From Trichodesmium erythraeum IMS101 (GTDB taxonomy: Bacteria > Cyanobacteriota > Cyanobacteriia > Cyanobacteriales > Microcoleaceae), in assembly GCF_000014265.1 (NCBI RefSeq), contig NC_008312.1, positions 4,620,001 through 4,652,000 of the forward strand: DNA of 32,000 nt, written 5' to 3'. Within the stretch, counting starts at the first letter, position 1, and every line of letters starts with the position of its first letter. Positions 1 through 30,807 of the stretch are shown piece after piece. Position numbers and translations under genes: made by a program. The notes under the pieces are model-generated. The model did not search any database, had not been told where the DNA came from, and saw only the letters and a program-made list of their open reading frames with translations.

Positions 1-351
1 GGGGGTTTGTTTCTGAAGTATTTTTACTTGGTGACATATTTATATTAAGTCCGGTGTACATAGAAGATTTATTAAAAGAGTAAAACACTTATGCTTTCTG
101 GCAGGAGGCAGAAGGGTTAAAAGGTCAGGAAGCTTTAGGCAAAAGAGTCAGAAGGCTTCGGAAAAACGAGCTTTTTATGAATCTAATTTGGTATTAGTAG
201 TTAGTAGGTGCTAGGTTTTATAGCTAAATTCAGGAGTCAGAAGTTAAATTCGCAGCACGGACTATATTTGATAATTTAGGAATCTAACAGTCATGACAAC
301 TGTTATAAGAAAATGGGAAAAACCTATCAACTACCGCAACTTTTGAATTAT

Positions 352-387
352 ACCATACGGATTAATTTCCAGTTTCTACCGTATGGT
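352..387 (-). repeat. Perfect 9-bp inverted repeat (ACCATACGG ... CCGTATGGT) with an 18-nt loop. Possible transcript-end hairpin about 180 nt downstream of the last MAA-cluster gene.
   Basis: Arms read directly at 352-360 and 379-387. There is no convincing U-tract after it on the minus strand, so terminator function is only a possibility. Confidence 0.3.
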
Positions 388-564
388 CTACACTATTAAC
401 CCAACAACAAGGCAGAAGGAATTTCACCTACAAAGATAGATGTTTTATGTTTCATGTATTGACTGAAAAGGTTTTTCTATCTACTTTAGAGAGTTTTTTC
501 CCAGCCAACAAGTCCCATCTACTCAAGCTGTCTCAAAAATTCATAAAATCCTTGGTATGCTTCT

Positions 565-1650
565 TTAATTCCACTTAAACAAAGAACCACAAGCTACGCG
601 AGTTCTTCCTGCTGCTGCACTCCACAACTCTAGAGCTACATCCTCCAGACTTTCTCCATCTGCTTGAAGCATCCGCGAAATCATAGCAATTTTCCCAAAA
701 GTCCAGAATAAGCCTGCTTCCAGGAAATATGGTTCATTGGTGTTAGTATGTACCCGGAAATCATACAAAGAATAATCGCGACACCCCAATGCAATATGAG
801 CACTTTTAGCTGCATTCGCTAGTTTCTCAAATAACTCTGGAGTAACATTCGCCGGACAAATTGGCTTGGCTATAGGTTTCTCAGGTTGCTTTTCAGGAGT
901 TCCGTCAGATTGAAGTACCAACTTATCATTTACAGTTCTGATAGGATGTTCCTCTGTGACTAAATATTCTATCATAGGTAAAACTTGCAACTCACCCTTG
1001 CGCTCTACCACAGCTACACGCAATTCCCTTCCAGGAATATAATCCTCAACCAACAATTTATCCTCTAATTCAAACCCCTTATCCAAGGCTGCTTCTATCT
1101 GAGATTCATCCCACACCAATGTTACGCCCAAAGAATTGTCTTCCGAAGTTGGTTTCACAACAAAAGGAGGCTTCATTGTTAAAGTTTCTCCCCGCCGTAG
1201 TTGCTGCGCTTTAGCTACTTGTACCCCAGATGCCGAAACAACATTCCGCGTCTGAGCTTTGTTAGTTGCTAGTGCCGTACAATAGGATGGTGACCCCACT
1301 AAAGGTAGATTAAGCATATCCTCAAAAAATGCTCGGAAACTGGTCATACCAAGAAAGCAGAACATGTGGGGAACTACAACATCAATTTGAGGTAGTTGCA
1401 GAATCATGTCCTGAAGTAACATCTTTTCTGATAATGAATCTAAAGAAGCTCCCAACTGCCAAAGACCATCAGGATGTACTACTGCATAATAACTGCTGAC
1501 TCCAACTGGTTGCACTACTTCTTTGGCATAGAGTATTGATAGGTTGTAGTAGAATTCGGAAACACGGGAACCTGCCAGGTGCAAGACTTGTAATCTATTC
1601 ATTGTGGCTAAGGATGAGTGTTGATTTTGATTAATTTCTTCTAATTTCAT
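565..1650 (-). CDS. mysD: MysD-type D-Ala-D-Ala-ligase-like ATP-grasp enzyme, distal paralog (A). Expected to condense a second amino acid onto mycosporine-glycine.
   Basis: 361-aa ORF. By-eye alignment to E. coli DdlB: KPPFVVKPTSEDNSLGV (~IVKPSREGSSVG), EDYIPGRELRVAVV (~EKWLSGPEFTVAIL), omega-loop-like ...NDKLV...ICPA (~EAKYL...FCPA), YFLEAG (~YLLEAN). It is colinear with mysA/B/C on the same strand. Confidence 0.8.
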   Translation of the reverse strand: MKLEEINQNQHSSLATMNRLQVLHLAGSRVSEFYYNLSILYAKEVVQPVGVSSYYAVVHPDGLWQLGASLDSLSEKMLLQDMILQLPQIDVVVPHMFCFLGMTSFRAFFEDMLNLPLVGSPSYCTALATNKAQTRNVVSASGVQVAKAQQLRRGETLTMKPPFVVKPTSEDNSLGVTLVWDESQIEAALDKGFELEDKLLVEDYIPGRELRVAVVERKGELQVLPMIEYLVTEEHPIRTVNDKLVLQSDGTPEKQPEKPIAKPICPANVTPELFEKLANAAKSAHIALGCRDYSLYDFRVHTNTNEPYFLEAGLFWTFGKIAMISRMLQADGESLEDVALELWSAAAGRTRVACGSLFKWN

Positions 1651-1710
1651 TACTAATTATTTTTATTTTATATTTTTTGACTAATTAAATACTAACAGTT
1701 ATCCGCTTTT

Positions 1711-2796
1711 TTAATTCCACTTAAATAAAGAACCACAAGCCACACGAGTTCTTCCTGCTGCTGCACTCCACAACTCTAGGGATACATCCTCCAAACTTTG
1801 CCCATCAGCTTGAAGCATCCGCGAAATCATACTAATTTTCCCAAAACCCCAGAATAAGCCTGCTTCCAGAAAATATGGCTCATTAGTTTCAGCATGTACC
1901 CGGAAATCATACAAAGAATAGTCGCGACAACCCAATGCAATATGAGCATTTTTAGCTGCGTTTACTAGTTTTTCAAATAACTCTGGAGTAACATTCGCCG
2001 GACAAATTGGTTGAGCTATAGGTTTCTCAGGTTGCTTTCCAGGAGTTCCATCAGATTGAAGTACATATTTATCATGTACAGTTCTAATAGGGTGTTCTTC
2101 TGTGACTAAATATTCTATCATCGGCAAGACAGACAACTTACTCTCTCGCTCAACTACAGCTACACGCAATTCCCTTCCAGGAATATAATCTTCAACCAAC
2201 AATTTATTGTCTAATTCAAACCCCTTATCCAAGGCTGCTTCTATCTGAGATTCATCCCACACCAATGTTAACCCCAAAGAATTATCTTCCGAAGTTGGTT
2301 TCACAACAAAAGGAGGTTTCATTGTTAAAGTTTCTCCCCGCCCTAGTTGCTGCGCTTTAGCTACTTGTACCCCAGATGCCAAAACAACATTCCGCGTCTG
2401 AGCTTTGTTAGTTGCTAGTGCCGTACAATAGGATGGTGACCCCACTAAAGGTAGATTAAGCATATCCTCAAAAAATGCTCGGAAACTGGTCATACCAAGA
2501 AAGCAGAACATGTGGGGAACTACAACATCAATTTGAGGCAGTTGCAGAATCATGTCCTGAAGTAACATCTTTTCTGATAATGAATCTAAAGAAGCTCCCA
2601 ACTGCCAAAGACCATCAGGATGTACTACTGCATAATAACTGCTGACTCCAACTGGTTGCACTACTTCTTTGGCATAGAGTATTGATAGGTTGTAGTAGAA
2701 TTCGGAAACACGGGAACCTGCCAGGTGCAAGACTTGTAATCTATTCATTGTGGCTAAGGATGAGTGTTGATTTTGATTGATTTTTTCTAACTTCAT
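1711..2796 (-). CDS. mysD: MysD-type D-Ala-D-Ala-ligase-like ATP-grasp enzyme, proximal paralog (B).
   Basis: 361-aa ORF differing from paralog A at 22 of 361 residues (hand count, about 94% identical). Same motifs as A, but HDKYV replaces NDKLV at residues 241-245. Confidence 0.8.
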   Translation of the reverse strand: MKLEKINQNQHSSLATMNRLQVLHLAGSRVSEFYYNLSILYAKEVVQPVGVSSYYAVVHPDGLWQLGASLDSLSEKMLLQDMILQLPQIDVVVPHMFCFLGMTSFRAFFEDMLNLPLVGSPSYCTALATNKAQTRNVVLASGVQVAKAQQLGRGETLTMKPPFVVKPTSEDNSLGLTLVWDESQIEAALDKGFELDNKLLVEDYIPGRELRVAVVERESKLSVLPMIEYLVTEEHPIRTVHDKYVLQSDGTPGKQPEKPIAQPICPANVTPELFEKLVNAAKNAHIALGCRDYSLYDFRVHAETNEPYFLEAGLFWGFGKISMISRMLQADGQSLEDVSLELWSAAAGRTRVACGSLFKWN

Positions 2797-2977
2797 AATT
2801 ATTGTTATTTTAGATTGTTCTATACTAACAGTATTTAGGAATTTTGATACTTCAATTATTAAGTAATTAACATAGGTCGAATAACTTTTTTGATAATTAT
2901 AAGCTATAAGTGTGTTAATTATTCTTATGTTTACTTCTTATGTAGGGATGTTGCATACAACTTACCTACCTACTCCC

Positions 2978-4078
2978 TTACTTCTTTTTCATATCGCGAA
3001 TATTACACATATTTCCGAAAGCGGTGAGAATTTTACGCGGTGGTTGAACATTGAGCCTACCGTGGACAACCTGTAGGTTATCTATTACTAAAATGTCTCC
3101 TTGTCTCCAGGGAAACACTGTAGCATTTTTCCATTCAGCTTCCCCTAATTCTTTTGCCTCTGCCTCTGTTATTTTCGTATTGTTTCCTTCTTCATTAACC
3201 AAGTACATTTTTGGTTGTGCATTGTCTATCCCTTCCAGATTTCTATACAATTTAGAAGGCAAAAAATTGTAGTATATTATTTCTTTGAATGGATAGCGCT
3301 GCGCAATGCTGCGATACCATTCTCTGGCAACAAAAGAATCAAAAGTGCTGAGACAAAAGCACAGTTTGCCCGTTCTTGGGTGATGGAACACGGGAATGTA
3401 AGAACATTCAAAATAAAGAGAACCATCAGCTTTCCACTCAAAATAAAATTCCCCGTCTTCAAGCATTTTTGTAATTTCCTCTCGCGAGAGTTCCTCGAAA
3501 ACTATTCCTAATAAATGATTAGGAACATTTCTCACAAATTTCTGAGGTGTATTAGCGAATTTATGCTGCAAATTAGGAGACAATTCGTTAAAGATTTTTT
3601 CTGTATTAATAATAGGAGTTTCGCCATATAAAGTGGGTTCAATTTGACAGAAAAAAGCCAGACACATGGGCCTAACTGGCACCATATTCAGTTCATTATG
3701 TGGAGGTATTATCAAATTCCCTGGTGCTTCGGAAGAGGTGAAAACTTTATCAGTTATTCGATTTCTTTGAGAGCTGCCAAAATGATACTTTGATGCCAAT
3801 TTAACATTCAATAGCTCTAGGATATTTTCAAATTGTGCCGCAGTTTCTATTTCAAATCCCCGGAATAATAGAGCGCCGTAGTTGTCTTGCTGTCTATGAA
3901 ACCAATCTCTATTTTCCCTGACTAATTCAGCGAGAACTGAGAAGGATTTTTTCTGGACTGGTTCTATGACTAAAGGTAGTTTTTTTTCACCGGTAGTAAA
4001 ACTTTTTTCCTCATCGCGTAAAAACCGCAATTTAATATTTGATGACAGATAATTTGGTAGTTTTTCAATTGTTAGCAT
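2978..4078 (-). CDS. Fe(II)/2-oxoglutarate-dependent dioxygenase, TauD/TfdA / clavaminate-synthase-like fold. Candidate MysH-type MAA tailoring enzyme.
   Basis: 366-aa ORF. Facial-triad candidates are H127-x-E129 (IIPPHNELN; codon H127 at 3698-3700) and H339 in VIDNLQVVHGRLN, followed by Arg (R341/R348), as in CAS/AsnO/TauD-type enzymes. It is embedded in the MAA cluster. Confidence 0.7.
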   Translation of the reverse strand: MLTIEKLPNYLSSNIKLRFLRDEEKSFTTGEKKLPLVIEPVQKKSFSVLAELVRENRDWFHRQQDNYGALLFRGFEIETAAQFENILELLNVKLASKYHFGSSQRNRITDKVFTSSEAPGNLIIPPHNELNMVPVRPMCLAFFCQIEPTLYGETPIINTEKIFNELSPNLQHKFANTPQKFVRNVPNHLLGIVFEELSREEITKMLEDGEFYFEWKADGSLYFECSYIPVFHHPRTGKLCFCLSTFDSFVAREWYRSIAQRYPFKEIIYYNFLPSKLYRNLEGIDNAQPKMYLVNEEGNNTKITEAEAKELGEAEWKNATVFPWRQGDILVIDNLQVVHGRLNVQPPRKILTAFGNMCNIRDMKKK

Positions 4079-4226
4079 AGCTGAAAAATTGTTACTATTA
4101 TTAGTTTTTGTTTGTATTTTTTTTGATTATTTTTCAACTTTCACACACTGATGTATTTAAACACGGAACTGTCGGCCAAAAAATACATTAAGAGAAAATT
4201 GTGGTAGATGCAATAATTAAACTTAA

Positions 4227-5204
4227 TTAATTAGAAGACTCAACTCCTGTATTAACAGATTTACTTGATATAGCCAAATACATTCCCCATAAAATTATTG
4301 AGAAGCTTACCGAACTCCAGAGATTAATATTTTCCGAGAAAATTATCCAACCTTCGATCATACTAAGAGCAGGAGCACATAATGCAACTAAGCTAGTAAA
4401 CCCAGCAGATAATTTTTTGAGAGAATAAGCCCACAGCCCTATACCTATCATTTGACTACAAAGAGCTTGAATAATGACTGCAAGCCAACCAGTTAATGAA
4501 CTTGGAAAAAGTTGATCCTCAGTAATTAGAACTACAGGTAAGAGCAATAAGGCACTCGTTGTTGAAGACCAAGTCATAATTGTAACTGGGTTGAATTGAG
4601 TGCGAAGTTTCTGAACTATAAGTGGGTGTATACCAAAAAATACTGCTGAGAGTAAAGCTGCTAAGTCTCCTAGTAATTGTTCACTAATTCTAAATGAGAA
4701 AATATCATTCACTTCTAACAAGGCAGAACCACATATCGCCACAAACATACCAAGTAGAAATTTATGGTCAAAGGTTTGACTTAAAGCTAACCATGCTCCT
4801 AACACAGTAAATATAGGCACTAAACTATGGAGCATAGTAGAGTGAGCAATGCTTGTCATGGTTAAAGACCAAGCCCAAAGTATCAGACCAATAGATAAAA
4901 GGATCCCATCTGCTATCAGTAGCATTCCTTTTTTAACTAGTTCTGGTTTATTTAATTCAATTTGAGTTTTATTTTTTTGTTTTCGGTAATTTAAAGTTAA
5001 TAATCCATTTAGTAACCAAAAGGGAATAGCTGCAATCCAAAAACGATTGAATATTGTAGCATTTGGACCAAGATTATACTCGCTTAAACGGATAAAAATT
5101 GGTGAAAAAGATATACAGATTAGACTGCCAATTAATGCAGCTAAACAGTCTATAGGTATTGATGAGAAATGGTTTAATGGTAATAATCTAGCTTGATTGT
5201 TCAT
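4227..5204 (-). CDS. EamA/DMT-superfamily (drug/metabolite transporter) membrane protein.
   Basis: 325-aa ORF that is hydrophobic throughout, with about 10 predicted helices in two similar halves. This is the typical EamA-type size and layout. Confidence 0.7.
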   Translation of the reverse strand: MNNQARLLPLNHFSSIPIDCLAALIGSLICISFSPIFIRLSEYNLGPNATIFNRFWIAAIPFWLLNGLLTLNYRKQKNKTQIELNKPELVKKGMLLIADGILLSIGLILWAWSLTMTSIAHSTMLHSLVPIFTVLGAWLALSQTFDHKFLLGMFVAICGSALLEVNDIFSFRISEQLLGDLAALLSAVFFGIHPLIVQKLRTQFNPVTIMTWSSTTSALLLLPVVLITEDQLFPSSLTGWLAVIIQALCSQMIGIGLWAYSLKKLSAGFTSLVALCAPALSMIEGWIIFSENINLWSSVSFSIILWGMYLAISSKSVNTGVESSN

Positions 5205-5246
5205 CTTTTTTCTAATTGCTGAAATTGAAAAAGTAGTAGTATGATT

Positions 5247-6683
5247 TTATTGTTTACTCAAATCTTTAGGCCAAATTTGCAAATTAGCAATTCCATAAAC
5301 AATAAAGCCTGCTGCCATACCAGGCAAGACTTCATAAATAGCGCTTGATAGGTTAAAGCCTTTATTCCATATAATCGCAACTACTATACCAGTAATCATC
5401 ATTGTTATTGCGACTGGAACCCTTACAGGTTTTTGCCACACTCGCAATACTAACAACGGACCTAAAGCGCAGGCTAAAACTGACCAAGAGAAAATGACCA
5501 AAGCAAATACACTATTGTTTGTTATGAGAGCGATCGCTAATACAAAAGCAGTAACAGCTAAGGTAGCAATTTTAGCTTTTCGATAAGAGTTAGATCCACT
5601 GGGAACTAAATCTTGACTTAGTGCAGCAGAACATGATAATATTTGAGAATCTGCTGTAGAAATAGCTGCAGAAAAAAGTCCTGCTAACATCAACCCTACT
5701 AAAACTGCTGGCAATAATTCTATAGATAGATTCGGTAATGCTAACTCTGGGTCACCAGATGTCATTAATTCAGGTAACAAAACTCTGGCAGTTAATCCTA
5801 TACCAAAAGCTGTAGCCGAATTCATTAGACCGCAGACTAATTTTATGTTACGAGCTAACGCTATATTATCTGCAGAGTCAATTGCCATTGCTCTTACTAA
5901 TACATGAGGTTGACCGACAACACCCAAGCCTGACACCAACCACCCCAAAAAGTAAGGAAAAAACCCCCAAGGTAAATTAGTAGGCATCCAATTTGTTAGA
6001 GTGGGGTCAATGGCATTAAGCTTGACCCAAAGTTCTGTCAACCCTCCACAAGCCAGTAAACTTACTATACACAAAATCAACAGAGATAATATCATTAAAA
6101 TTCCCTGCACAGAGTCAGTCCATATAGAAGCACGGATACCTCCTGAAAAACAGTAGACAACCACAATTACAGCCCCAGCAATAATACCCAGTTCATAGTT
6201 CCAACCAAATATAGCATTCAGTCCTTTGCTTGCTGCTACCAGTTGAGCTGCAGCATAAGTACCCAGAATTCCTATGGTAATTAGTGCTGAAATTATTGTA
6301 ATCGAGCGCCCTTGATTTTTTGGACTTAGATTTTCTTGACCTAAGAATGAGGAGATTGTATCTGAGTCTGTTTCCTGAGAAACTAACCTCAACCTTTTAA
6401 ATATTAACAACCAAGCAATATAGTCTCCTATTGTCCAAGCAAGGGGTATCCAAATAGCAGCAAATCCAACTTTATAGATAAAACCTATCGAACCAATAAA
6501 TAGAAACCCACTCTGACCTGTTGCCATTGCGGATAGTGCTGTCAACCAGGGATTAACATTTCTACTGGCAAGTAAGTAATCAGTTGTTGTATTTTGCTTT
6601 TGTGTTGCGGAGTAAATGCCTACTACTGTAAATGATAGCAAAAAGGCTATAAATGTTATCCCAATCCAAATTTGTTTTTCCAT
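5247..6683 (-). CDS. Sodium:solute symporter family (SSS, PutP/PanF-like) transporter.
   Basis: 478-aa polytopic ORF. The N-terminal signature DYLLASRNVNPWLTALSAMATGQSGFLFIGSIG resembles the SSS motif (YFLAGR...LS..AS..S.W...G.PG). Contains one HIP1 site. Confidence 0.8.
   Translation of the reverse strand: MEKQIWIGITFIAFLLSFTVVGIYSATQKQNTTTDYLLASRNVNPWLTALSAMATGQSGFLFIGSIGFIYKVGFAAIWIPLAWTIGDYIAWLLIFKRLRLVSQETDSDTISSFLGQENLSPKNQGRSITIISALITIGILGTYAAAQLVAASKGLNAIFGWNYELGIIAGAVIVVVYCFSGGIRASIWTDSVQGILMILSLLILCIVSLLACGGLTELWVKLNAIDPTLTNWMPTNLPWGFFPYFLGWLVSGLGVVGQPHVLVRAMAIDSADNIALARNIKLVCGLMNSATAFGIGLTARVLLPELMTSGDPELALPNLSIELLPAVLVGLMLAGLFSAAISTADSQILSCSAALSQDLVPSGSNSYRKAKIATLAVTAFVLAIALITNNSVFALVIFSWSVLACALGPLLVLRVWQKPVRVPVAITMMITGIVVAIIWNKGFNLSSAIYEVLPGMAAGFIVYGIANLQIWPKDLSKQ
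5530..5537. repeat. HIP1 octamer GCGATCGC.
   Basis: Exact match read in the sequence. Confidence 0.95.
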
Positions 6684-6699
6684 TTTTCACTATTAAATT

Positions 6700-7025
6700 G
6701 TAGTATTATTTTATTGTTTACTCAAACTTTTAGGCAAAACCGTAAAATTAGCAATTCCAAAAAAATAAAACCTGCGACGATGCCAGGTAAGACTTCATTA
6801 ATAGCAATTGATTAGGTTAAGTTCTTTATTCCAGATAATGGCAATAATTATACCTGCAATCATTATCAATCATTGTTATTGCTACTGGAACACTTATAGT
6901 TTTTTGCCACACTGGCAATACCAATAACCGACCCAAAGCACAGGCTAAAATTTACCAGGAGAAAATCACCAAAGCAAATATACTATTATTTATTATCAGA
7001 GCTATCCCTAACACAACAGCAAAAC
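6700..7025 (-). pseudogene. Decayed 3'-terminal fragment (roughly the last 100 codons) of a second SSS symporter copy.
   Basis: 6711-7020 aligns with 5247-5560 (offset 1464) at clearly non-random identity, including the stop-proximal TTATTGTTTACTCAAA. It carries indels (for example an extra TATCAAT in ATCATTATCAATCATTGTTATTGC) and in-frame stops. The HIP1 site of the intact copy has decayed to GCTATCCC. Confidence 0.8.
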
Positions 7026-7681
7026 ATAATATAATAATATATCTTATTTTATTCTGCTGTATCTAATGATTTCTCAAGTTGGAGGGAGGCGAGGTTCTAC
7101 TTCTTTAGAGCTGACAAACTATTTATTAGCTTTTCTGCTAAAAGTTACAAACTTGGGATTAAAATCATGTGGCAATATTTCATAAGTTTTCAGCCATCAA
7201 ATTTGAGGTAACTTTAAACGACCTACCCCCCTGACTCCCCTACCACTAAGTTGATAGATGTAGGTATGGAACCATTAAGGGTAAAACTATCATTTCTGCC
7301 TTTTTTTCTTGAGTTTAGGTTGACCATACACTTTGGTAAATTTTCGTTTCCAAGCAACTGAAACAATACCTCAAAGCATATCAAGGAGGTGTTAAGTGAA
7401 ACTGCTTAGTACGAATAGTTTTTTTTCGGTTTAACTATTGCTACTAAAAGTTTATGCAGATAAATTGCAGTCGGAAATTTGATGTTACCACCTTGATTAC
7501 CCATGTTATGATTTAATATATTTTGGGTTATGATATCCAGCTTACTTGCATGAATTGTTATAAACTTACAAGATTATAGCTAACAGCTTATGTAGCCTTG
7601 AGTTTTTAGCTGACTTGTAAACGCTGCTTGCAAATAAATAAGTATCTTGTCTAGAAAAGACAAATAGCTAAATAGTGACCT

Positions 7682-9046
7682 TTAATCCCCTCCCAACTCT
7701 ACCAGTTTTCCAATATTAAAGTCAATTCTTACCCAACCTTTAAATTTGCGTAAATTATTGAGTAGTAATAAGAAAATTTGCCAGTGGTGAACCATCAAAA
7801 ATGGTAAGGGGTCATTCACTTGAAAAATAGCATCTTTTCCTTGATTAATTCTTCTAATCCAAGCTTTCAATTGCTCTAATGACCTAACTCCTGTTAGCCT
7901 CCATAATTCATGGTAAGTCCAATAAGTAGGTTGACTATTTAGTCCCGGTAATATTGGGTTTTCATTATCATTTTGACTATCTTTTAAATAAGCATCTGCT
8001 ACCCCTGGATGGTCATGAAAAGTTGTAATTGCTGAATGAGTTCTGGGATTACATTCTATGGGAAAAACTCGACCATCCTCTGTCTGAATAAAATCAAATG
8101 AAATTTGACCAGTAATATTTAATTCTCTAACAAATTTTTCTACCCAATCGTAAATTTGTGGATTATCAACATGAGCATAATTGACTTGAAATTCTGATGA
8201 TTCGCAACAGCAATACAGTCTGATTTTCCCTTTTCTAACAGTGCTATGAGTACAATATTCTTTGCCTTTAACAAACTCTTGCATAATCCATGGTTTCTCT
8301 TCACTAATAGGCAAATTTCCAACAAATTGTTCCATTTCTGCCCTTGAATTCATGGGCAATTTTGTCAAGTCTAAACGACGTACTGAATCGTAAGGAATAC
8401 TTTTAAGAATATATCTACTCCCATCAGCAGCAAAGTCAAAATTGAGAATTTGTTTTGGGTCTGTAATTAAAAAAGATTTTGGTACAGATAAACCAAAACT
8501 TTTAGCTTTTTCCATAAATGTGAACTTGTTATCTAACATTTGAGTTACTTCTACGTCAAAGTGCAAAACTTCACAATATTCAGATAAAAGTGGTTTTGCT
8601 AAAGATTCATAGTAACTTCCTACTGGGCTAGATACTGGAATAAATACATCTATGTTTTCTTTTTTTACAATCTCTAATAATCCCTGACAATAACCATCCC
8701 AATCTTTATTTGGAGCAGGTATTGTATAGAAACCTGTAACGGCATTAGAAAATCTATTTCCTGATAACCAATATTTATTTGTTTCTAATATAAAAGCTTT
8801 ATGACCTGCTGCATGAAATGAACGGGCAAGTTGCAAGCATTTTGTCATTTTTGCGCCCGTGATTAAGATATTTTTGGGATTATCTGCCACTAATTTTTTG
8901 GTAAATGGTAGACTGATTAAATTCCAGAGTAGTAAAGGTATTACCCTTAATAAATTAAATGGTAAAAAAATCAATAATAATGCAATAGTTCCGATATTTT
9001 GGAACAATGCATAAGCACGTACTTGAATAAATAATATTAGTCCCAT
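7682..9046 (-). CDS. mysC: MysC ATP-grasp ligase (4-deoxygadusol + glycine -> mycosporine-glycine).
   Basis: 454-aa ORF closely matching the remembered Anabaena variabilis Ava_3856 sequence: ITGAKMTKCLQLARSFHAAGH, SIPYDSVRRLDLTKLP, KPWIMQEF, CTHSTVR, QISFDFIQ, IECNPRTHSAITTF, PLPFLMVHHWQI, IDFNIGKLVELGGD. The N-terminus is hydrophobic, as in homologs. Confidence 0.92.
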   Translation of the reverse strand: MGLILFIQVRAYALFQNIGTIALLLIFLPFNLLRVIPLLLWNLISLPFTKKLVADNPKNILITGAKMTKCLQLARSFHAAGHKAFILETNKYWLSGNRFSNAVTGFYTIPAPNKDWDGYCQGLLEIVKKENIDVFIPVSSPVGSYYESLAKPLLSEYCEVLHFDVEVTQMLDNKFTFMEKAKSFGLSVPKSFLITDPKQILNFDFAADGSRYILKSIPYDSVRRLDLTKLPMNSRAEMEQFVGNLPISEEKPWIMQEFVKGKEYCTHSTVRKGKIRLYCCCESSEFQVNYAHVDNPQIYDWVEKFVRELNITGQISFDFIQTEDGRVFPIECNPRTHSAITTFHDHPGVADAYLKDSQNDNENPILPGLNSQPTYWTYHELWRLTGVRSLEQLKAWIRRINQGKDAIFQVNDPLPFLMVHHWQIFLLLLNNLRKFKGWVRIDFNIGKLVELGGD

Positions 9047-9833
9047 CTTTAGTAGTTTTGTAGAGATAACAATATTTTATGAGTCTTCATTTATGCTTTG
9101 GTGAAAAGAAGGTGATCATTAGCCTGAAAGCTTTCCAAGTTCAACTCTAAACTTTGGAGAGTTTCAAGAGACTTTTTCTTTTCTATAGTATTTATTTATG
9201 AGACAAGTCGGGTATTCAAACCAATCTTAATTATAGAAATTCCCCGATAGGCGGGCGAAGTTTTCAAAATAATTGTTCAGTAAAAGTACTTTTTATGGGG
9301 TTATTTGAGCATAAGCAATAACTATTATCTTGTCATAAATAGCATTAATTTTGGCAACAAAGCCATTGAGACACACAATATAACAAATCAATTCCTCAGG
9401 AATAGTGTAGATTTCTAAGGGTTAACCATTGTTAATATTGACTACTGATAATTGAATATTAGCAGTTTTTAGTAGTTCTTCTTCAATAGTAATTAAAATT
9501 TCGTAGTATAACTGTGCTTTATTTCCTGTGAGTTGATGTAGTTTATTATTAAAAATAGTTGGAAATGAGAACAAGCCAGAAGCCGGAGAAAGTTAATTAC
9601 GCTCAATAAATTTCCCAGGCACAAGCTACAAATTTCCAGTATTATTTAATTTACTTCCCTCAGTCGCACTTAATGATAGTTCTGGTATATTCGGTAACAT
9701 TATAAATGCTACCAAATCTTGAGGAACTTATGCTTCTACGGATCAGGCAAAAGGTAAAAAGTTAAAATGAGCTGACAAAAGGTTGTAAACTTTTACTAAT
9801 TCCTCATGTCATAATATTTTCCTCAAATCATAA

Positions 9834-10664
9834 CTACTTTCGCCTAATAATAGTTAACCCATCTCGTAAAGGTAGTAAAACTTGTTCTACTCTAGGATCT
9901 TCTGCAACAAAGCGATTAAATTGAGCGATCGCTTCTCCATTAAGATTACGTTTTTCTTTCGGTAGATAGGGTTCCCCTTGAAGTAAAGTATTATCGACAC
10001 AAATAAATCCATTTGTTGCTAACAAACTTGTATCCAAAAGTATTTTGAAGTACTCTATATACTCTTTTTTATCAGCATCAATAAAGACTAAATCAAAAGT
10101 TTCTCCTGCATCTGCCAACTTCTTAATGGTTTCTAGAGCAGGTGCAACTTCCACCGAGATTTTGCTTCCATGTGGAGACCCATCAAAACAAGATTTAGCA
10201 AAGTTAGATACATATTCATCCACTTCACAAGCAACCATCCGCCCATTTTGTGGTAAAGCTTCCGCCATTGCCAATGCTGAATACCCAGTAAACATCCCTA
10301 TTTCCAGGATACTTTTAGCCCCAATCATATGAACAAACATTTTTAAGGTTTGTCCCTCAATATGCCCAGATAACATTTCCTGCTCTAATTGACGCACAGT
10401 CTCGCTATTGGAAAATCTTGAACTCCATGGTTCTTGACGAGTCTTTTCTGCTAATGCTGTCAAAGCAGGAGATTCTTGAGTGGTATTTTCTTCTAAATAG
10501 GGGTCAAGACCTGCCCCTAATTGATACGCTTGCTTAATAGCATTAGATAATTCTGGTGGTATTTCTGCAGTTTCTGCCATCTTGACAATTCTTTCAAGTT
10601 GCTCTACCAAAATACCTAATGGTGTAACTGGTCTGGCAGTTTCTGTTTTCACAACGGTTGTCAT
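9834..10664 (-). CDS. mysB: MysB SAM-dependent O-methyltransferase (catechol-OMT-like).
   Basis: 276-aa ORF. Near-identical blocks to remembered Ava_3857: ARPVTPLGIL, EQEMLSGHIEGQTLKMFVHM, LEIGMFTGYSALAMAEALP, FDLVFIDADKKEY, GFICVDNTLLQGE, NGEAIAQFN, DPRVEQVLLPLRDGLTIIRR. Confidence 0.93.
   Translation of the reverse strand: MTTVVKTETARPVTPLGILVEQLERIVKMAETAEIPPELSNAIKQAYQLGAGLDPYLEENTTQESPALTALAEKTRQEPWSSRFSNSETVRQLEQEMLSGHIEGQTLKMFVHMIGAKSILEIGMFTGYSALAMAEALPQNGRMVACEVDEYVSNFAKSCFDGSPHGSKISVEVAPALETIKKLADAGETFDLVFIDADKKEYIEYFKILLDTSLLATNGFICVDNTLLQGEPYLPKEKRNLNGEAIAQFNRFVAEDPRVEQVLLPLRDGLTIIRRK
9925..9932. repeat. HIP1 octamer GCGATCGC.
   Basis: Exact match read in the sequence. Confidence 0.95.
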
Positions 10665-11339
10665 ATTTTTATCCCTTACTACTTAATAACAGCAGAGCAG
10701 TAGAGCATCTAGACAAAAATTATAGGTAAAATCTAAGCCTCAAATCACTAAAATTTTCCCTGATAACAGATAGACTCGAAGTGGAAAAATGTTTCTCCCT
10801 TCTACTTATAGGAGAGGGTTCAGGGAAGGAACAGTATATTCTCCAACTTACCTACATTTTCAATCTAGACACACTAGTAAGGTGGGCTAATATTGAGTTA
10901 TCTGTACTCAACTAATCGAAAATTTTCTCATATTTGCCCACTTTAAACGTTTCTCCCAAAAAGGAGAAGAAAAAAAATCTATCGTCAGGACTGAGGCATA
11001 AGCTAATAGATATCTCAAGAAAAGATTTTTTAAGCTCTTACCCTGCCGTTCCCAAATCGGCATTTTTGGAGAGGTATAACATATCTAATAGGGATAAACA
11101 ACCGTTCACCCCTACAGATAGTGCATAATTTTATACGCCCGGAATTTTTCCTAATTATTTTCAGAAATCAGAAAATTGATATAAATGTCACTAATTATGA
11201 CATTTTAATATTTACTTTCAGCTTCAATTTTTACCTGTCAGCAGCACAACTATGACAATGATAAACATTTAAGCTAACCGCATTTCTCTATCTTGAGAAT
11301 TGCATATCATAAGGGGTTATTAGCAGACTCCCTATTTTT

Positions 11340-12689
11340 TTACTCCAAACCTAGGTCGCTTAAATACATTTCTTCACCTTTTCCTTGACTACCAAAAGAA
11401 GTAAAAGAAGCACAAAATTTCTTATGTTCCTCAACAGCAGATGTTAATAAATCTGGAGATATTTCCTTCGCAAAACTACAAGAACCAATACCTGTAGGTA
11501 GGGGTGCCCACAACCTACGACCGCGCTTACGAGTTATATTTTTCTGAGCTTGAAGCATTAACTCTGTATCTTCGATAATTTCATGGTAAACAGACAAACC
11601 CATAGAATGACACAAGTTAACTATTCGATCACGTTCATTTGTTGTTATCCAACCCATCTCTAACGCTAAAGTAGCTCCAAGAGACATACCAATAGTTACA
11701 GCATGACCGTGCATTAGTTTGACCACTGGCTCAAAACGGGGACTCCATGTATGACCGTAAGCATGAGGTCGGTCTTGATAGGTTTCAAACATATTTGTTC
11801 CTTCATGCTTCATATAAGAATACAAAGCACGATAAATCACCTCATCAGATATTTTTACCAGTTCCTCATCTGCATCAAAATTAGCAAAATGAGTTTCAAC
11901 TAAACGTCGACCATATTTTTCCAGCAATTCAAATAATGTTTGATCATCAGTAACTGCCATTTTAATAATTTCTGCCATTCCGTTGCGAATATGACCTTTT
12001 GCCAAAGTACGGAACAAAGTACGGTCTACTATAGTCATCACAGGGGGATGATATGCTCCAATACCATTTTTAAATAGCTTACTATTTGTGCAGGTACGAG
12101 GAGATGGTCCAGCATCAATAGCAGCAACAACTGATGTTCCAATCATTACATAAGGTGTCCGCCGATGTTGTAAACTACAGGCTAAACCAGCAACATCACT
12201 GAGTACACCACCTCCAATTATCAAAACAGGTTCGTTACGAGATACATCACAACCATCTTTGCCCAAGAATTGCAATATTTTATGGACCGTATCAGTATTT
12301 TTGTCTGACTCCCAAGCACGACAGACAAGAGTTTTCAGAGGAATATCATTCTGCTCAAAATAATTTGTCAATGATTTTCCATAAAGTTCATCTACCATGT
12401 GATCGACAACTGCTACGCATCGATTACGACTTTTATAGATATTAGCTAAAATAGGGTTAGATGGATCTAAAACTCCATTTACTAATTTGACTTCTGATTT
12501 GAGGGTAAATGTTGCAGAAATCTCGAATGAGCGACCATCATCCACTGCCTTTATTTCTCCACGACCATCATACCACTCTGAAGTACGATATTGTTCTGCA
12601 TGATCGCGCCGAATACTTGGATCAAATACGAAGTCTGGCTTGTTGACTTTTTCAATTACTGGTACAGAGGTTGATATTGCGTTGCTCAT
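11340..12689 (-). CDS. mysA: MysA, DHQS-like sedoheptulose-7-phosphate cyclase (desmethyl-4-deoxygadusol synthase type).
   Basis: 449-aa ORF. Dehydroquinate-synthase-like blocks: LIIGGGVLSDVAGLA, ...IDAG..., KNGIGAYHPP, NGMAEIIKMA, AYGHTWSP, HGHAV. It lies first in the colinear mysA-mysB-mysC order. Confidence 0.85.
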   Translation of the reverse strand: MSNAISTSVPVIEKVNKPDFVFDPSIRRDHAEQYRTSEWYDGRGEIKAVDDGRSFEISATFTLKSEVKLVNGVLDPSNPILANIYKSRNRCVAVVDHMVDELYGKSLTNYFEQNDIPLKTLVCRAWESDKNTDTVHKILQFLGKDGCDVSRNEPVLIIGGGVLSDVAGLACSLQHRRTPYVMIGTSVVAAIDAGPSPRTCTNSKLFKNGIGAYHPPVMTIVDRTLFRTLAKGHIRNGMAEIIKMAVTDDQTLFELLEKYGRRLVETHFANFDADEELVKISDEVIYRALYSYMKHEGTNMFETYQDRPHAYGHTWSPRFEPVVKLMHGHAVTIGMSLGATLALEMGWITTNERDRIVNLCHSMGLSVYHEIIEDTELMLQAQKNITRKRGRRLWAPLPTGIGSCSFAKEISPDLLTSAVEEHKKFCASFTSFGSQGKGEEMYLSDLGLE

Positions 12690-13769
12690 GATTTGTATTT
12701 AGGTAATTGTTTGCTTTAGAGGTATTGTCTGATGTTATTGCACAACAAACCAGTCTGCCTACACCTGAAGTCAGTGTAAGAGCTTAAATTAACACCTTAT
12801 TATTGAGATGAACATAACCCAAAGGATATACCATTTTTTTGAGTGGTTTCTAAGTATTGAATGATAGAGTAATTATTTTGGTAATTCTCTAAATGCAGTA
12901 ATACTTATAAGTAAACTTCTTTGACTGTAAAGATAAATTAACTACAAGAATCACTACCTATAAACGAATACCATTATTTTTATCTCTATTTTACGCCTAA
13001 GTATCGGCATATTAAAGTTTACCATCTCACCTTTTTGTTTGCTTTTATCAAAAAGCATTTTGATTTCTGGAATCTTGGTGGTATGAATCCTGCACAGACT
13101 TATGTTACCTCAATTTTATCCACAGTAAACTAGACAATCTTCCTAACATAGAAGATAGTATAATGTAATAACTTTTCCTTGAGAGTATTTGGTTCAGCTT
13201 CCTTATTATTGATAGCAAAACTAAACTAATACTTATTAGTCTTCCCTTATTCTTCTAGTTCTCCACAGTTCTATAGTACAAATTTTCTCTTCTTCCTTCT
13301 CCTCTAGCTTCCAATTTAGATTATAACGGTGATTCATGTTTTGACCTTGATTTAACAGTTGCCTAATAATTATGGGGTTTAGCATAGTTGTCAAATTCTT
13401 GATTCATGACTAATGGAACTTACCACGAGTTTTAATTGTACCAACATCAATTTATTGAATTATTACTTTAGTTAGCTTCTAGATATCTTAAAATCACTTA
13501 TGCTTGAGGGCATACTACATAAGCATTTTCACATTCTAATACCTAACACTAATAGAGGGGGTCAAAATTTGTCTATTGTTTATAGGAGATAAACTGTTGA
13601 TTAGACACAGGTTTATCAAGTACCCAATAGAAAAGTTCATCCTGAGCTTACCCGCTAGCAAAGTTTCATTATCTTAATATATTGGCATTGAGGTAAATCG
13701 TACCTGTTATGATTAATAAGACCATACTATTAGTGCTAACACTTTTTAACAATAAGCAACAAGACTAAC

Positions 13770-14230
13770 TTACTTTAGGGGATATCTAAGGAATAGGGTA
13801 GAAAGCTTTTCTACCAAGCTTTTTATAAAAATCCCACAATCACCATTCTAGTAACGATCAAGGCGAAAATCATCTTGATCAGCAATCACTTTTTTATAAC
13901 CTAAATTATTTGAGGCTTCTCGAGTCTAACTAACAGTTTTATTAGTATACACTTCTGAAACATCTAAGACAACCTTACTATACTTAGTAGCTTTATGCTT
14001 TAAAAAAAGTTCAAATCTATAATGTACCCAGCTCAACATTTGTCTAACTGACTTGCTTATGAGTTTACTATTAGATTTGATTCTAGTTCAAGAAAGTTCA
14101 AAAATTAACAGTAAAATTACATCAAAGTTATGAACCAATAACAAAGCTGTCCTTTGATGCAGCTCAGTCATAGGAGAATCCTAATCTTTAACCTCATTCG
14201 GTTAGCTGCTTTTTTAATCCTTTACTTTAT
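13770..14230 (-). mobile_element. tnpB: Decayed TnpB (IS200/IS605/IS607-type OrfB) C-terminal relic; pseudogene.
   Basis: The minus-strand translation reads ...RIKKAANRMRLKIR / (frameshift) DSPMTELHQRTALLLVHNFDVILLLIFELS*TRIKSNSKLISKSVRQMLSWVHYRFELFLKHKATKYSKVVLDVSEVYTNKTVS*TREASNNLGYKKVIADQDDFRLDRY*NGDCGIFIKSLVEKL. This matches the TnpB pattern (ELH....L...FD.I.LP.FE...M, ML....HY.F...L..KA..YG..V..V.E.YTSKTCS.CG...LDRD.NGA.GIF). It has at least 3 in-frame stops and 1 frameshift, and the Zn-ribbon cysteines are lost. Confidence 0.75.
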
Positions 14231-15767: not shown

Positions 15768-16297
15768 GTTCATAGAAAATGTCCTTTTGACAAAAAAGAT
15801 AATTTCCGAACTAAAAAATTATATTGAAGTCATTCCTTCTGACTCCTGATTTCTCATTTTTAGGGGAGTAAGGAGGAGTCTTGATCAATAGTTTATAATT
15901 TGTAGCAAATATTGATCACGCTTTGTATAACACTTTTTCGTAGTGCAATTTTTAGTGCTTTTCAGATTTATAAACTACATCTTCACAACAAAAACATCTT
16001 AGGGACATTTAATTTAACCTCCCTACTATGGTCTACTAATTATGAAAACTACTGTAAGTCAACAAAGGCTGAAGTTGATCAGAATTTACCAAGGTTAACC
16101 TAGAAACTGCATTTTTTGTAGATACATGTTCTTAAAGATAACAATTGCTCCTAAAAGTCAGGTGCGCAAGTGTGTAAGTCCTATTGATATTTTTCTAGAG
16201 AATTGAAACTGATTATGGTATTATAAATATTTGTAAGTTATAGCTCTAATTTAATAATAGCCATTGTTATATATTGCCAATAGCTATTAATGAAAAT

Positions 16298-17155
16298 ATG
16301 GCGAATCAAGAATATCTAGCCTTACTGAATCGTGGTGTAGTGACATGGAATGAATGGAGATATAAAAATCTACATTTACAACCAGACTTTTCTAATGCTA
16401 ACTTGAGAGGCTTTAATCTAGAAGGTTTTAATTTAAAAGGATTGAATTTAACAGGAGCTAATCTGTCTTTAGCTCGGTTAATTAATGCTAATTGTAGAGA
16501 TACTATTTTTACTTCAGCTCAACTAATTAATGCCAATCTAACTGCTATTAATTTTCAGGGCGCAAATTTAAAAAATACTAATTTTATTTCTGCTAATCTA
16601 AGGCTTGCTAATTTAATCGAAGCTAATTTAGTAGATGCTAATTTAATTGGAACTGATTTACAAAATTCTAACTGTAGGTATGTTGATGGTACTTCAGCAG
16701 ATCTCAGTAGAAGTAACTTAGCCAAAGCAGATTTAATGGAAGCAAACTTCAGTTATGCTAATTTTAGTTATGCTAATCTTCATCAAGCTGAATTAATTGG
16801 AGGTTATTTTTATCAAGCTAATTTTCACCAAGCTAATCTTATTAAAGCTCATCTAACTGGGATTTATTTATTAAATTCTTCTTTGATAGAAGCTAACCTG
16901 TCTGGAGCAGATTTGAGATTTGCTAAACTCAAAAAAGTTAACTTTCAAGATGCAAATTTACAGGAAACTTATTGCCGAGGTACTAACCTAAGTGAAGCTA
17001 TTTTAATCAGAGCAGATTTAAGAGGAGCAAATTTCAGGGGAGCTAACCTAAATAAAGCTAATCTTACTGACGCTTTAATTGACAATATTAACCTAGTAGA
17101 CGCTAATCTTCAGGAAACAATTATGCCGAATGGCAAAATTAATTACAATTATTAA
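16298..17155 (+). CDS. Pentapeptide-repeat protein.
   Basis: The ORF consists almost entirely of A(D/N)LxX pentapeptides (ANLSLARLINANCRDTIFTSAQLINANLTAINFQGANLKNTNFISANLRLANLIEANLVDANLIGTDL...). The track ORF starts at TTG 16274. The ATG at 16298 (MANQEYLALLNRGV...) is preferred as the start, but this is uncertain. Confidence 0.85.
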   Translation: MANQEYLALLNRGVVTWNEWRYKNLHLQPDFSNANLRGFNLEGFNLKGLNLTGANLSLARLINANCRDTIFTSAQLINANLTAINFQGANLKNTNFISANLRLANLIEANLVDANLIGTDLQNSNCRYVDGTSADLSRSNLAKADLMEANFSYANFSYANLHQAELIGGYFYQANFHQANLIKAHLTGIYLLNSSLIEANLSGADLRFAKLKKVNFQDANLQETYCRGTNLSEAILIRADLRGANFRGANLNKANLTDALIDNINLVDANLQETIMPNGKINYNY

Positions 17156-17844: not shown

Positions 17845-19001
<1,157 letters not shown>

Positions 19002-20198
19002 GCAGTAGTGCTAAACAAGTAATGATTGATTATAGCGATGGATAAAATGCAAAATGATACCAATGTTATTTTCAAGCTAATTTGGAGATAGACTGAGTTT
19101 TTTTACACCCATACCTAGATACCATTTCTCAAATGATATTATTGAATAGTTCAATTTAATAAATCCCCCCCTATTTCTTTTCAGAGTGCTTTATGTCGTT
19201 TACTAATCTCTAATTGCATAAGTTAATATACTCATTGAGCTCCTAAAAAAGCTTTGAACCAAGAGACCAAAAAGAGGCCATACAAAAAATAATATTACTA
19301 ATTTTTGCGAATAAACATTAAGTAGAGCACAACGTTCTTACACTCCACAAATTAGTTCATGGGATTATGCTACCCATTCTTAAAACAATCACACATTAAC
19401 GATAAATTTAAGACCAATACTGCTACAAATTTATAGCTACTTCTTAATCCTACAGGCTTATAGTAACAAACAAAATTTCACAACCCTCTACTTCCATTGC
19501 TTATTAGCTTTGTTACCCATACTCTTAACATAATTCATCACATTGAATTGGGAGTTTCCTCTCTTTCTTTAGGCTGAACCTTATCGCTTTTAGGTATTTT
19601 TGCTTATGTCTGGTTAATATCCTGCTTGTAGCCATTGATCCGTAACTTGGACTACACGAGTAATGCCAGCCATCGAAATCCTGATCTTAAACAGTCGTTC
19701 AATCAGCGATGGGAATAGCTTGTTTAATCCAGTTCTAGGTAAAGTTTTTTAGCAATTGTCGTCCACATTCATGACACAAAAACTCATACTTATCTTAATA
19801 TATAATATGGCCATTTTTGACAGTTTAGTTTTTGAATATTCACACCTGGGAAAAGTAGCCATAGATAGAAAACAATAACTTTTACATCTCTATCATTACA
19901 TATTGAGCACTACTTCTTTTGCTTTGTTTTAGCCATAGCATTTCCCATGCTAGTGAGGTCCATATTTAAAGCTGAAAAGCTGTGAATTAAAGCTTTTAGT
20001 ATTCCTCATTTAAGTGGGAACCGCCATTTTCATTATTTAACAACTTTATTTGGGATTTTAATTTTAATTGTTGCCTGTAATGTTTAACCAATAAATAAGT
20101 TTTCAAGGGTTTTTATCTTTCCTCCTAATTCAGTAGGAGATACTAATAAATAATAACTGAAATGATATACAACTAATTAAGGACAATTTACGTTGTCA

Positions 20199-20471
20199 CT
20201 ATTTTTTGCCTTTACCCTTTTTAGATTTAGTAGATTTAGATTTATTAGATTTAGATCCACTACCCTCTTGTTTACTATATTTACGCATAAACCTTTCAAC
20301 CCTTCCTTCAGTATCAATAATTTTCTGAGTACCGGTAAAATAGGGATGATTTCCCGACCAAACATCAACATGAATTTCAGGTTGTGTAGAACCAACTGTC
20401 ATTACAACTTCACCATTGCAATAAACTTTAGCTTCTGGATACCATTCAGGATGAATATCAGCTTTAGGCAT
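20199..20471 (-). CDS. rpmE: 50S ribosomal protein L31, with no CxxC zinc motif and a Lys/Ser-rich C-terminal tail.
   Basis: MPKADIHPEWYPEAKVYCNGEVVMTVGSTQPEIHVDVWSGNHPYFTGTQKIIDTEGRVERFMRKY..., followed by the tail SKQEGSGSKSNKSKSTKSKKGKGKK. Confidence 0.93.
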   Translation of the reverse strand: MPKADIHPEWYPEAKVYCNGEVVMTVGSTQPEIHVDVWSGNHPYFTGTQKIIDTEGRVERFMRKYSKQEGSGSKSNKSKSTKSKKGKGKK

Positions 20472-20786
20472 TTTCTTGACTTTACTTAATTACAAATATT
20501 TTCTTTACTCTTAACTGTTTTAACATAATCATATTTAGTAGTTCTTTGAGATAATTTAATTCACCAATAAACTAGATTTTAATGATTAACAGTTAATTTT
20601 ATTGTATCAAATTATTTGCCAATTTTTACAGGATGAATAGTAAAAATTGGCAAATTAACTTTGTTGTCTCAAATGTATAGAAGTCGCCATTACTGAGGAG
20701 GACATTGTCCATCTGCTCAAATATAGTCCATGCTACGAATTTGATTTCTGACTTCTAAAGAACGAACTTCTGATTTCAGCTACATA

Positions 20787-23077: not shown

Positions 23078-23189
23078 GAGAATTGTTAGTCTCTAAAGCT
23101 TAAAAGTCAATATCTATTAACATTAAGCTCTTACTTTTAAATGGTCAAATTAACCTTTTCTATCTTCCCACTGCCTTTTAGCATCAACC

Positions 23190-23540: not shown

Positions 23541-23690
23541 GACTACCTTAAATACTTAGAATATTTGAACTAATGTTTAGGAAATGTTTATAATTAGTTT
23601 CTAGTCTACTTTTACTAGCAGTTAAAAGAACTTAATTCTACAAATTTGAATGTAATAACATTTCCGGTTGTTAACCTTTTTTCCTCATTT

Positions 23691-24635: not shown

Positions 24636-24680
24636 GGAGTAACCTCCCTTTTCCATTGAACCCCAGAGTTAATAATTTGA

Positions 24681-30804: not shown

Positions 30805-30807
30805 TGT

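Follow-up and report, generated by a model that had tools for sequence, protein, structure and literature searches.

The question raised by this locus is which reaction is catalysed by a dioxygenase whose gene lies within a cluster for mycosporine-like amino acids (MAAs), and to which of the known enzyme families this dioxygenase belongs. Trichodesmium is a major nitrogen fixer of the ocean and lives at the sea surface. Its MAAs are abundant, absorb ultraviolet (UV) light and colour both dissolved organic matter and satellite signals (PMC3083659). We analysed a stretch of 32,000 nucleotides of Trichodesmium erythraeum IMS101 (contig NC_008312.1, positions 4,620,001 to 4,652,000 of the forward strand; 35.6% G+C), hereafter called the window, and in particular the gene at positions 2978-4078. 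An earlier note, made from the letters of the sequence, had described this gene as coding for a TauD-like Fe(II)/2-oxoglutarate (2OG) dioxygenase inside an MAA cluster, either a MysH-type dealkylase or an amino-acid hydroxylase. Our comparisons indicate that the product is almost certainly an orthologue of MysI, and that it probably strips glycine from an MAA to give palythine-type products, a reading to which we assign a probability of about 0.6. Both the MysI family and the role proposed for it are in the literature already, and in this respect the general point is a modest one; what is new is the Trichodesmium member of the family, and searches of the literature brought to light no account of the dioxygenase of the Trichodesmium MAA cluster.

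Active-site residues and family of the dioxygenase

Positions 2978-4078 hold an intact open reading frame (ORF) of 366 residues on the minus strand, with an ATG start; the plus-strand translation of the same positions is interrupted by many stops. The motifs that the earlier note had read in this ORF, H127-N-E129 and DNLQVVH339GR, are present exactly as it stated, on the minus strand, and the former is the sole HxD/E motif of the protein. Pfam PF02668 (TauD/TfdA) matches residues 44-349 with an E value of 3.6e-20 and a score of 73.4 bits (cut-off 27). This match and the invariance of the metal triad confirm that the protein is a member of the TauD-like superfamily, and no NCBIfam model, the TauD models included, fits the ORF. 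An antisense ORF (3215-3511, plus strand, 98 residues, TTG start) lies wholly within the conserved gene.

When 78 homologues with identities as low as 25% were aligned, H127, E129, T154, H339 and R348 were found to be invariant, and R105 and R341 nearly so (R105 in at least 90% of the sequences). Within the MysI clade both R105 and T154 are invariant, the latter in an equally invariant YGETP motif. H127, E129 and H339 pair residue for residue, with a constant numbering offset of +1, with His115, Glu117 and His308 of SqoD, which form the crystallographic metal triad of that enzyme (PMC12951627). The counterpart of R105 in SqoD is Arg92, a residue that coordinates 2OG. By analogy with TauD, we take R348, nine residues after the distal histidine, to correspond to R266, and T154 to T126, given the equal spacing of 27 residues from the first histidine. 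Taken as a whole, the alignments strongly imply that the ORF holds a competent Fe(II)/2OG centre.

MysH is a protein of the phytanoyl-CoA dioxygenase (PhyH) family (PMC10510106, PMC11378024), and the enzyme of Nostoc linckia NIES-25 (Chen et al. 2021) was demonstrated to convert disubstituted MAAs into palythines (as described in PMC10666671 and PMC11378024). The name MysI was given in 2023 to a TauD/TfdA dioxygenase of Nostoc sp. UHCC 0926 (PQG02_36120; Arsin et al., PMC10510106). This enzyme was proposed, from product structures alone, to hydroxylate and thereby remove glycine, yielding palythine (PMC10510106, PMC10666671), and it falls in a clade apart from MysH, which its authors read as convergent recruitment (PMC10510106). 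We located MysI itself on plasmid pn1 of strain UHCC 0926 (NZ_CP117772.1, L081:8004-9167; here and below, L numbers designate loci and P numbers protein matches of our analysis). The pairwise alignment of the window protein with MysI spans 371 columns, nearly the full length, at 62% identity (E 2e-178). The best hit listed for MysI in Table S6 of the original report, MBR8837277.1 from Stigonema ocellatum (PMC10510106), corresponds to our match P0017, which is 64% identical to the window protein.

In a database search, the window protein matched about 55 clusters of proteins, exclusively cyanobacterial and with identities of 51-97% (from Trichodesmium, Okeania, Dapis, Roseofilum, Stigonema, Brasilonema, Nostoc, Scytonema, Calothrix, Aetokthonos and Dolichospermum), and the 90%-identity cluster that contains the 97%-identical sequences carries Trichodesmium names. 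The next matches dropped to 34% or less. The MysI clade is thus bordered by a gap in identity (at least 51% inside, at most 34% outside), and in a neighbour-joining tree it forms a single, long-stemmed group, in which the window protein takes its place among the marine filamentous forms. On these grounds we regard the ORF as a MysI orthologue with very little doubt.

No such relationship was observed with MysH. The ORF has no PF05721 (PhyH) match at E values up to 0.01. As a stand-in for MysH we used the 267-residue PhyH protein encoded between mysC and mysD on plasmid1 of Nostoc sp. HK-01 (a mysABC-X-D cluster), which matches PF05721 at E 6.8e-33 and whose family includes a protein of Nostoc linckia z18 (76% identity). 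BLASTP of the ORF against this stand-in showed no similarity (best E value 4.5), and the comparison of MysI-family and MysH-type-family profiles by hhalign returned a probability of 0.8%, in which only a generic motif around the distal histidine was covered. The label MysH-type, put forward in the earlier note, has therefore to be abandoned, and the question of orthology to MysH, which that note had left to an alignment, is answered in the negative for the HK-01 stand-in. As judged by these comparisons, the ORF has at most the fold in common with MysH and is otherwise not homologous to it. No PhyH-type gene is present in the window.

The structure of the protein was predicted with AlphaFold2 from the 78-sequence alignment (pLDDT 93.5, pTM 0.92); an earlier model from 21 close sequences (pLDDT 67.8) was poor around the active site and gave fold neighbours of the same kind. 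Among solved structures, significant sequence similarity was confined to Arabidopsis At3g21360 (profile E 3.4e-28), whose PDB entry title gives no function, and 9YUT, which is SqoD (6.7e-27). At3g21360 (PDB 1Y0Z, TM 0.70/0.79) was also the top match of the model in Foldseek, followed, at E values of 1e-11 to 1e-13, by ScoE, TauD, SfaA, RdpA, PvcB, AAD-1/2, AtsK, IsnB and Rv0097. SqoD is a sulfoquinovose dioxygenase that hydroxylates the sulfonate-bearing carbon, after which the C-S bond breaks (PMC12951627). The nearest characterised relatives cleave beside a heteroatom or attack an N-carboxymethyl group, an observation that goes modestly beyond the searchable literature.

AsnO, VioC and clavaminate synthase (CAS) share the double-stranded beta-helix fold with the ORF and carry an HxE...H metal triad, which the earlier note had taken as a link to these enzymes. 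HxE is found at the same position in At3g21360 and SqoD, where Glu117 is a metal ligand; it is therefore not diagnostic of amino-acid hydroxylases. When the PDB was searched with the MysI-family profile, AsnO, VioC and CAS were absent at E values up to 10 and CarC, which is related to CAS, appeared only at 0.64, and none of the first three was among the best 50 Foldseek matches. The HxE variant is, by the alignments, a trait of the At3g21360/SqoD/MysI branch and no pointer to the amino-acid beta-hydroxylases.

Linkage to MAA genes and the proposed removal of glycine

A genome scan, with one genome per species, retrieved 34 loci with relatives that are 59-95% identical to the window protein and 46 loci with relatives at 23-32%. 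All 34 close-relative loci are cyanobacterial (Oscillatoriales and Nostocales) and have MAA genes beside the dioxygenase gene, while mys genes were found at none of the 46 distant loci, nor in the three nearer sister lineages. An EamA transporter gene is present at 31 of the 34 close loci, in nearly every case directly upstream of the MysI-type gene; a PF00891 methyltransferase (MysF-type) at 29; a C-A-T-TE nonribosomal peptide synthetase (NRPS, MysE-type) at 27, with the close orthologues directly upstream of it; mysC at 22, mysA and mysB at 19 each, and mysD at 8. This result shows, or at the least strongly implies, that the linkage of MysI-type genes with MAA genes is obligate.

The company kept by the gene varies. 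It is found with MysD only in Roseofilum (L005) and Scytonema tolypothrichoides (L017), with the NRPS and methyltransferase only in most Nostocales, strain UHCC 0926 among them, and with both MysD and NRPS in Trichodesmium, Dapis and Aetokthonos. Common to all contexts are the product of MysABC and the EamA transporter, and the sole substrate feature that they share is mycosporine-glycine, the MysABC product, with its derivatives. It follows that, if MysI strips glycine in every context, this must be the glycine installed by MysC. The conserved EamA-mysI pair goes modestly beyond the searchable literature and suggests that MAA modification and transport are coupled; no transporter is mentioned in the MysI paper (PMC10510106), and the Brasilonema paper lists 'a transporter' in its cluster (PMC9918943).

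For the reaction itself we propose the following course. Fe(II) would be bound by H127, E129 and H339, and 2OG by R348, T154 and R105, as suggested by their invariance and by the alignment with SqoD and TauD. Activation of O2 then yields succinate, CO2 and Fe(IV)=O, as is established for the superfamily. At the N-CH2-COO- carbon of the MysC-installed glycine, which every MAA receives, the ferryl would abstract a hydrogen and introduce a hydroxyl group, and the carbinolamine would collapse to glyoxylate and an amino/imino MAA. Shinorine and porphyra-334 would in this way be converted into palythine-serine and palythine-threonine, and mycosporine-2-glycine into palythine; the freed nitrogen may be methylated by the MysF-type methyltransferase and the product moved by the adjacent EamA transporter.

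Support for glycine removal that is independent of these considerations comes from Brasilonema octagenarum UFV-OR1 (GCA_012912125.1), whose cluster contains mysA, mysB, mysC, a PF00891 methyltransferase, EamA, a TauD-type protein and an NRPS. The TauD-type protein (P0024) is 63% identical to the window protein and is the sole dioxygenase of its MAA cluster, and the strain reportedly makes palythine alone, in amounts that rise after UV exposure (PMC9918943). Exact look-ups of two further Brasilonema matches, P0029 and P0035, returned no contig, and that of P0024 led to the UFV-OR1 cluster. The chemistry sketched in the earlier note, in which hydroxylation of the glycyl C-alpha and collapse leave the amino group behind, agrees with this palythine-only chemotype and with the published MysI proposal; only its attachment to the name MysH did not survive.

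The same cluster illustrates how the two names can be confused. The Brasilonema dioxygenase (L092:10001-11164) belongs to the TauD family (PF02668) and was labelled 'mysH' (PMC9918943); by family it is a mysI, and the published naming error could spread into annotations. For the Trichodesmium gene, too, mysH would be a tempting mislabel, which the placement in MysI corrects. This placement predicts palythine-type, possibly N-methylated, products in Trichodesmium, and would make MysI a second, evolutionarily independent palythine-forming enzyme, usable for sunscreen bioengineering.

Several observations weigh against glycine removal as just described. Literature searches gave no assay, knockout or heterologous expression for any MysI, the role having been deduced from product structures. 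Four MAA standards underlie the Brasilonema correlation, and a PhyH gene may be present elsewhere in that genome. Palythine is not listed among the MAAs of Trichodesmium, two abundant ones of which are unidentified (PMC3083659). Moreover, MysH-type PhyH and MysI-type TauD genes occur together in one MAA locus in Stigonema ocellatum (L006:205-990, minus, and 8100-9314, plus) and in Aetokthonos hydrillicola (L014:5476-6261, minus, and 8718-9866, plus), which would be odd if the two enzymes did an identical job and argues against simple redundancy; the suggestion that MysH and MysI act at different nitrogens (PMC10510106) fits this co-occurrence, as would some other reaction on the part of MysI. 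Finally, the adenylation-domain specificity code of the NRPS is DIL(M/Q)LGLIWK in all 27 Nostocales-type loci, including that of Nostoc sp. UHCC 0926, and DVQF(V/I)AQVVK in Trichodesmium (L083:15118-19113, past the left edge of the window) and Dapis (L004:11237-15307). We take the former to be Gly-like and the latter Pro-like, so that the original scheme, with MysE as the source of the glycine that MysI removes, cannot be general. Clustering of mysE genes of the Pro type with mysI, mysF and mysD has also been noted (PMC12232313). The Aetokthonos locus, for its part, resembles two fused modules with an EamA gene in each, mysB-C-EamA-mysD-mysH followed by mysF-EamA-mysI-mysE.

The frequent vicinity of NRPS genes raises the alternative of an amino-acid hydroxylase, acting in the style of SyrP or AsnO on a free or NRPS-carrier-tethered substrate, after which a MysD paralogue or MysE would attach the residue to mycosporine-glycine. 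Relatives at 25-30% identity often lie beside an NRPS or are fused to one (P0101 and P0110 have a Condensation domain), the plasmid matches H2-H6 lie inside NRPS genes, an NRPS stands beside a TauD-like gene at L057, L058, L060, L068 and L074, and close orthologues are directly upstream of the C-A-T-TE NRPS, as said, at 27 of 34 loci; the two near-identical mysD copies of the window, in addition, could differ in substrate. Against this, no ligase partner is constant among the close orthologues, which have MysD only, NRPS only or both, and the earlier note's idea that the enzyme provides one MysD paralogue with a hydroxylated amino acid loses its footing for the same reason. The Nostocales NRPS code is of Gly type, and glycine is without a beta-carbon and alpha-hydroxyglycine unstable. 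The failure of the searches described above to retrieve AsnO, VioC or CAS points the same way, as does Brasilonema, which has this cassette and was reported to make palythine and no hydroxy-amino-acid MAA. We therefore consider an amino-acid hydroxylase unlikely.

Rather improbable, in our opinion, is also a different oxidation of the MAA, whether a decarboxylation or desaturation of the ScoE/PvcB/IsnB kind (giving a palythene/usujirene-type enamine, or formaldehyde and CO2) or a stable hydroxylation of ring or side chain. ScoE (E 3.6e-13), SfaA, PvcB, IsnB and Rv0097 are among the best fold matches after At3g21360, but all these matches are at TM of about 0.5 and 13-14% identity, and the ranking cannot separate a decarboxylative reaction from glycine removal because TauD, RdpA and AtsK score as well as ScoE. 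Palythene was reported from Trichodesmium (PMC3083659), a finding that, with the two abundant unidentified MAAs mentioned above, would suit such an oxidation, and the MysH- and MysI-type genes at one locus in two genomes hint at non-identical roles. On the other hand, the methyltransferase linkage (29/34) and the N-methylamino MAA products of Nostoc sp. UHCC 0926 (PMC10510106) are explained more simply via a freed amine, and the palythine of Brasilonema is again in favour of glycine removal.

It is similarly doubtful, although worth stating, that the 11-gene pathway of Trichodesmium, Okeania and Dapis (see below) makes undescribed MAAs and that the MysI reaction is not simply that of MysH, taking place at the other nitrogen or as a ScoE/IsnB-like decarboxylation. 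If this were true, the undescribed MAAs could be the two abundant unidentified ones of Trichodesmium or the aplysiapalythines of sea hares, and a reaction unlike that of MysH would explain why both types of gene occur at one locus in two genomes. A sulfonate- or taurine-catabolic dioxygenase (TauD/SqoD-like) that stands beside MAA genes by chance is extremely improbable and was rejected on genomic context: the Pfam and source annotations do read TauD/TfdA or 'taurine dioxygenase' and the closest characterised sequence relative is SqoD, but MAA linkage at 34/34 close and 0/46 distant loci, the lack of any NCBIfam match and the replacement of SqoD sulfonate-contact positions (M132, L130) all speak against it.

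The Trichodesmium gene cluster

The earlier note had placed the gene inside an MAA cluster, and this was correct: mysA-B-C lie upstream and two mysD genes downstream, all on the minus strand (Table 1). The mysC-like product is 64% identical to the mysC-position protein of the Nostoc sp. HK-01 cluster. The two mysD-like copies are 94-95% identical in DNA, and their differences are concentrated in the central part of the protein; between one and three copies, variously arranged around mysI, occur in relatives.

Table 1. Features of the MAA gene cluster and codons of the predicted active site (positions in the window)
Feature	Position	Strand	Basis
mysA-like sugar-phosphate cyclase, dehydroquinate synthase fold	11340..12689	minus	Pfam DHQ_synthase and DHQS_C
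mysB-like O-methyltransferase	9834..10664	minus	Pfam Methyltransf_3, E 1.4e-51
mysC-like ATP-grasp, installs glycine on 4-deoxygadusol	7682..9046	minus	Pfam ATP-grasp_3; NCBIfam PRK06849, E 1.4e-172
Sodium:solute symporter (PutP-like)	5247..6683	minus	Pfam SSF, E 5.8e-58; NCBIfam PutP model below cut-off
EamA/DMT transporter, directly upstream of the dioxygenase gene	4227..5204	minus	Pfam EamA, E 2.6e-33
mysI-type gene, 366-residue Fe(II)/2OG dioxygenase, TauD/TfdA family	2978..4078	minus	PF02668; 62% identity to MysI
Codon R105, predicted lid loop	3764..3766	minus	Conservation; alignment with SqoD Arg92
Codons H127-N128-E129, proximal two ligands of the facial triad	3692..3700	minus	Motif; invariance; SqoD alignment
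Codon T154 in YGETP, likely 2OG contact	3617..3619	minus	Invariant
Codon H339, distal metal ligand	3062..3064	minus	Invariant; aligns with SqoD His308
Codon R348, likely binder of the 2OG C5 carboxylate	3035..3037	minus	Invariant in 78 homologues
mysD-like gene	1711..2796	minus	Pfam Dala_Dala_lig_C, E 1.3e-23
mysD-like gene, copy 2, tandem duplicate	565..1650	minus	Pfam Dala_Dala_lig_C, E 1e-19

MysF and MysE are missing from the window because it ends too soon. A scaffold that is 99.93% identical to window positions 1-14078 (L083) extends beyond the left edge and, past the second mysD, carries a gene of the beta-hydroxyacid-dehydrogenase family, a C-A-T-TE NRPS of 1331 residues, a small ORF and a PF00891 methyltransferase. 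The full MysF/MysI/MysE trio is therefore present in Trichodesmium. The MysF-type methyltransferase lies about 10 kb from the left edge of the window, and neither it nor MysE directly adjoins mysI, the two mysD genes and the dehydrogenase gene being interposed. The Trichodesmium cassette is thus an MAA cluster of 11 genes (mysA-B-C, two transporters, mysI, two mysD, dehydrogenase, NRPS and mysF), a description that goes modestly beyond the searchable literature.

The dehydrogenase gene (L083:14042-15010, minus strand, 322 residues) is placed between the second mysD and the NRPS and starts about 37 bases inside the left end of the window. Its product matches the NCBIfam models of tartronate-semialdehyde reductase and HIBADH below their cut-offs, and beyond Trichodesmium contigs the gene was found only in a close relative (L002). 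The beta-hydroxyacid-dehydrogenase family also includes glyoxylate reductases and imine reductases, and by analogy an activity of either kind could be relevant to a pathway that releases glyoxylate and contains imines.

Among the 34 related loci, the SSF symporter gene was found only in marine filamentous relatives (L001-L004). What is left of a second symporter lies in the 998-bp gap at 6684-7681 of the window (6714-7086, minus strand) and covers about 120 C-terminal residues at 43-78% identity. In a related Trichodesmium locus from a metagenome-assembled genome (L001) both tandem SSF genes are intact, which indicates that one copy decayed in the IMS101 genome.

Scans of positions 400-13500 for promoters and terminators gave 53 and 6 predictions, respectively, as compared to 46.4 ± 6.7 and 7.9 ± 3.0 in shuffled sequence; there is no excess, and the scans are uninformative on operon structure. 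About 3.6 kb upstream of mysA lies a pentapeptide-repeat gene (16274-17155, plus strand), and a similar gene (42% identity) occurs near mysA or mysI in 10 related loci; this recurrence may reflect no more than the repeats themselves, which abound in cyanobacteria. The region 17845-31973, on the minus strand, contains ordinary housekeeping genes that, from a reading of their translations, appear to be peptide chain release factor-like, ribosomal protein, rpoA-like, truA-like, adenylate kinase-like and secY-like.

Comparison with known systems

The more distant precedents share the fold and part of the chemistry. The isonitrile synthases ScoE, SfaA and Rv0097, the ether-cleaving TfdA/RdpA/AAD enzymes, TauD and AtsK have the TauD fold in common with the ORF, at 10-15% identity and TM of about 0.5, and use an HxD triad. 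ScoE, SfaA and Rv0097 attack the CH2 of a glycine-derived N-carboxymethyl group, hydroxylation of O-CH(R)-COOH by TfdA/RdpA-type enzymes liberates glyoxylate or pyruvate, and AtsK and TauD carry out the same chemistry next to an O-sulfate or a sulfonate. By analogy, the chemistry of the ScoE and TfdA types constitutes a direct precedent for the proposed glycine step, with the differences that ScoE proceeds to the isonitrile with no amine release and that the substrates of the ScoE/TfdA/TauD group are not MAAs.

SqoD (PDB 9YUT-9YUX) and At3g21360 are closer, with the HxE...H triad as in the ORF and, in SqoD, the Arg92 that matches R105. The identity, however, is only about 20-30%, neither is linked to MAA genes, and both are without the extra helical insertion that the MysI clade has at about residues 245-320. 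The sulfonate contacts of SqoD are also changed in the ORF (Gln120 to M132, Met118 to L130), although Met118 contributes a backbone amide only.

MysH and the window protein are alike in being Fe(II)/2OG oxygenases with genes in MAA clusters and in one net reaction, the removal of glycine, which was demonstrated for the unrelated MysH and is the published proposal for MysI. They differ in family (PhyH as compared to TauD/TfdA), in length (about 267 as compared to 366 residues) and in the motif, which is an invariant H-N-D in MysH-type proteins and H-N-E here.

With MysI the window protein shares the Pfam family, the clade, the catalytic residues and the cluster neighbours MysF (PF00891) and MysE (C-A-T-TE NRPS). 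The Trichodesmium gene lies inside a core mysABC cluster, whereas MysI of UHCC 0926 is on a separate plasmid cassette; unlike in UHCC 0926, two mysD genes and the dehydrogenase gene precede the NRPS and the methyltransferase stands at a distance of about 10 kb; the NRPS code is Pro-like rather than Gly-like; and the Trichodesmium protein is 13 residues shorter in a variable surface loop that is complete in the other members of the clade.

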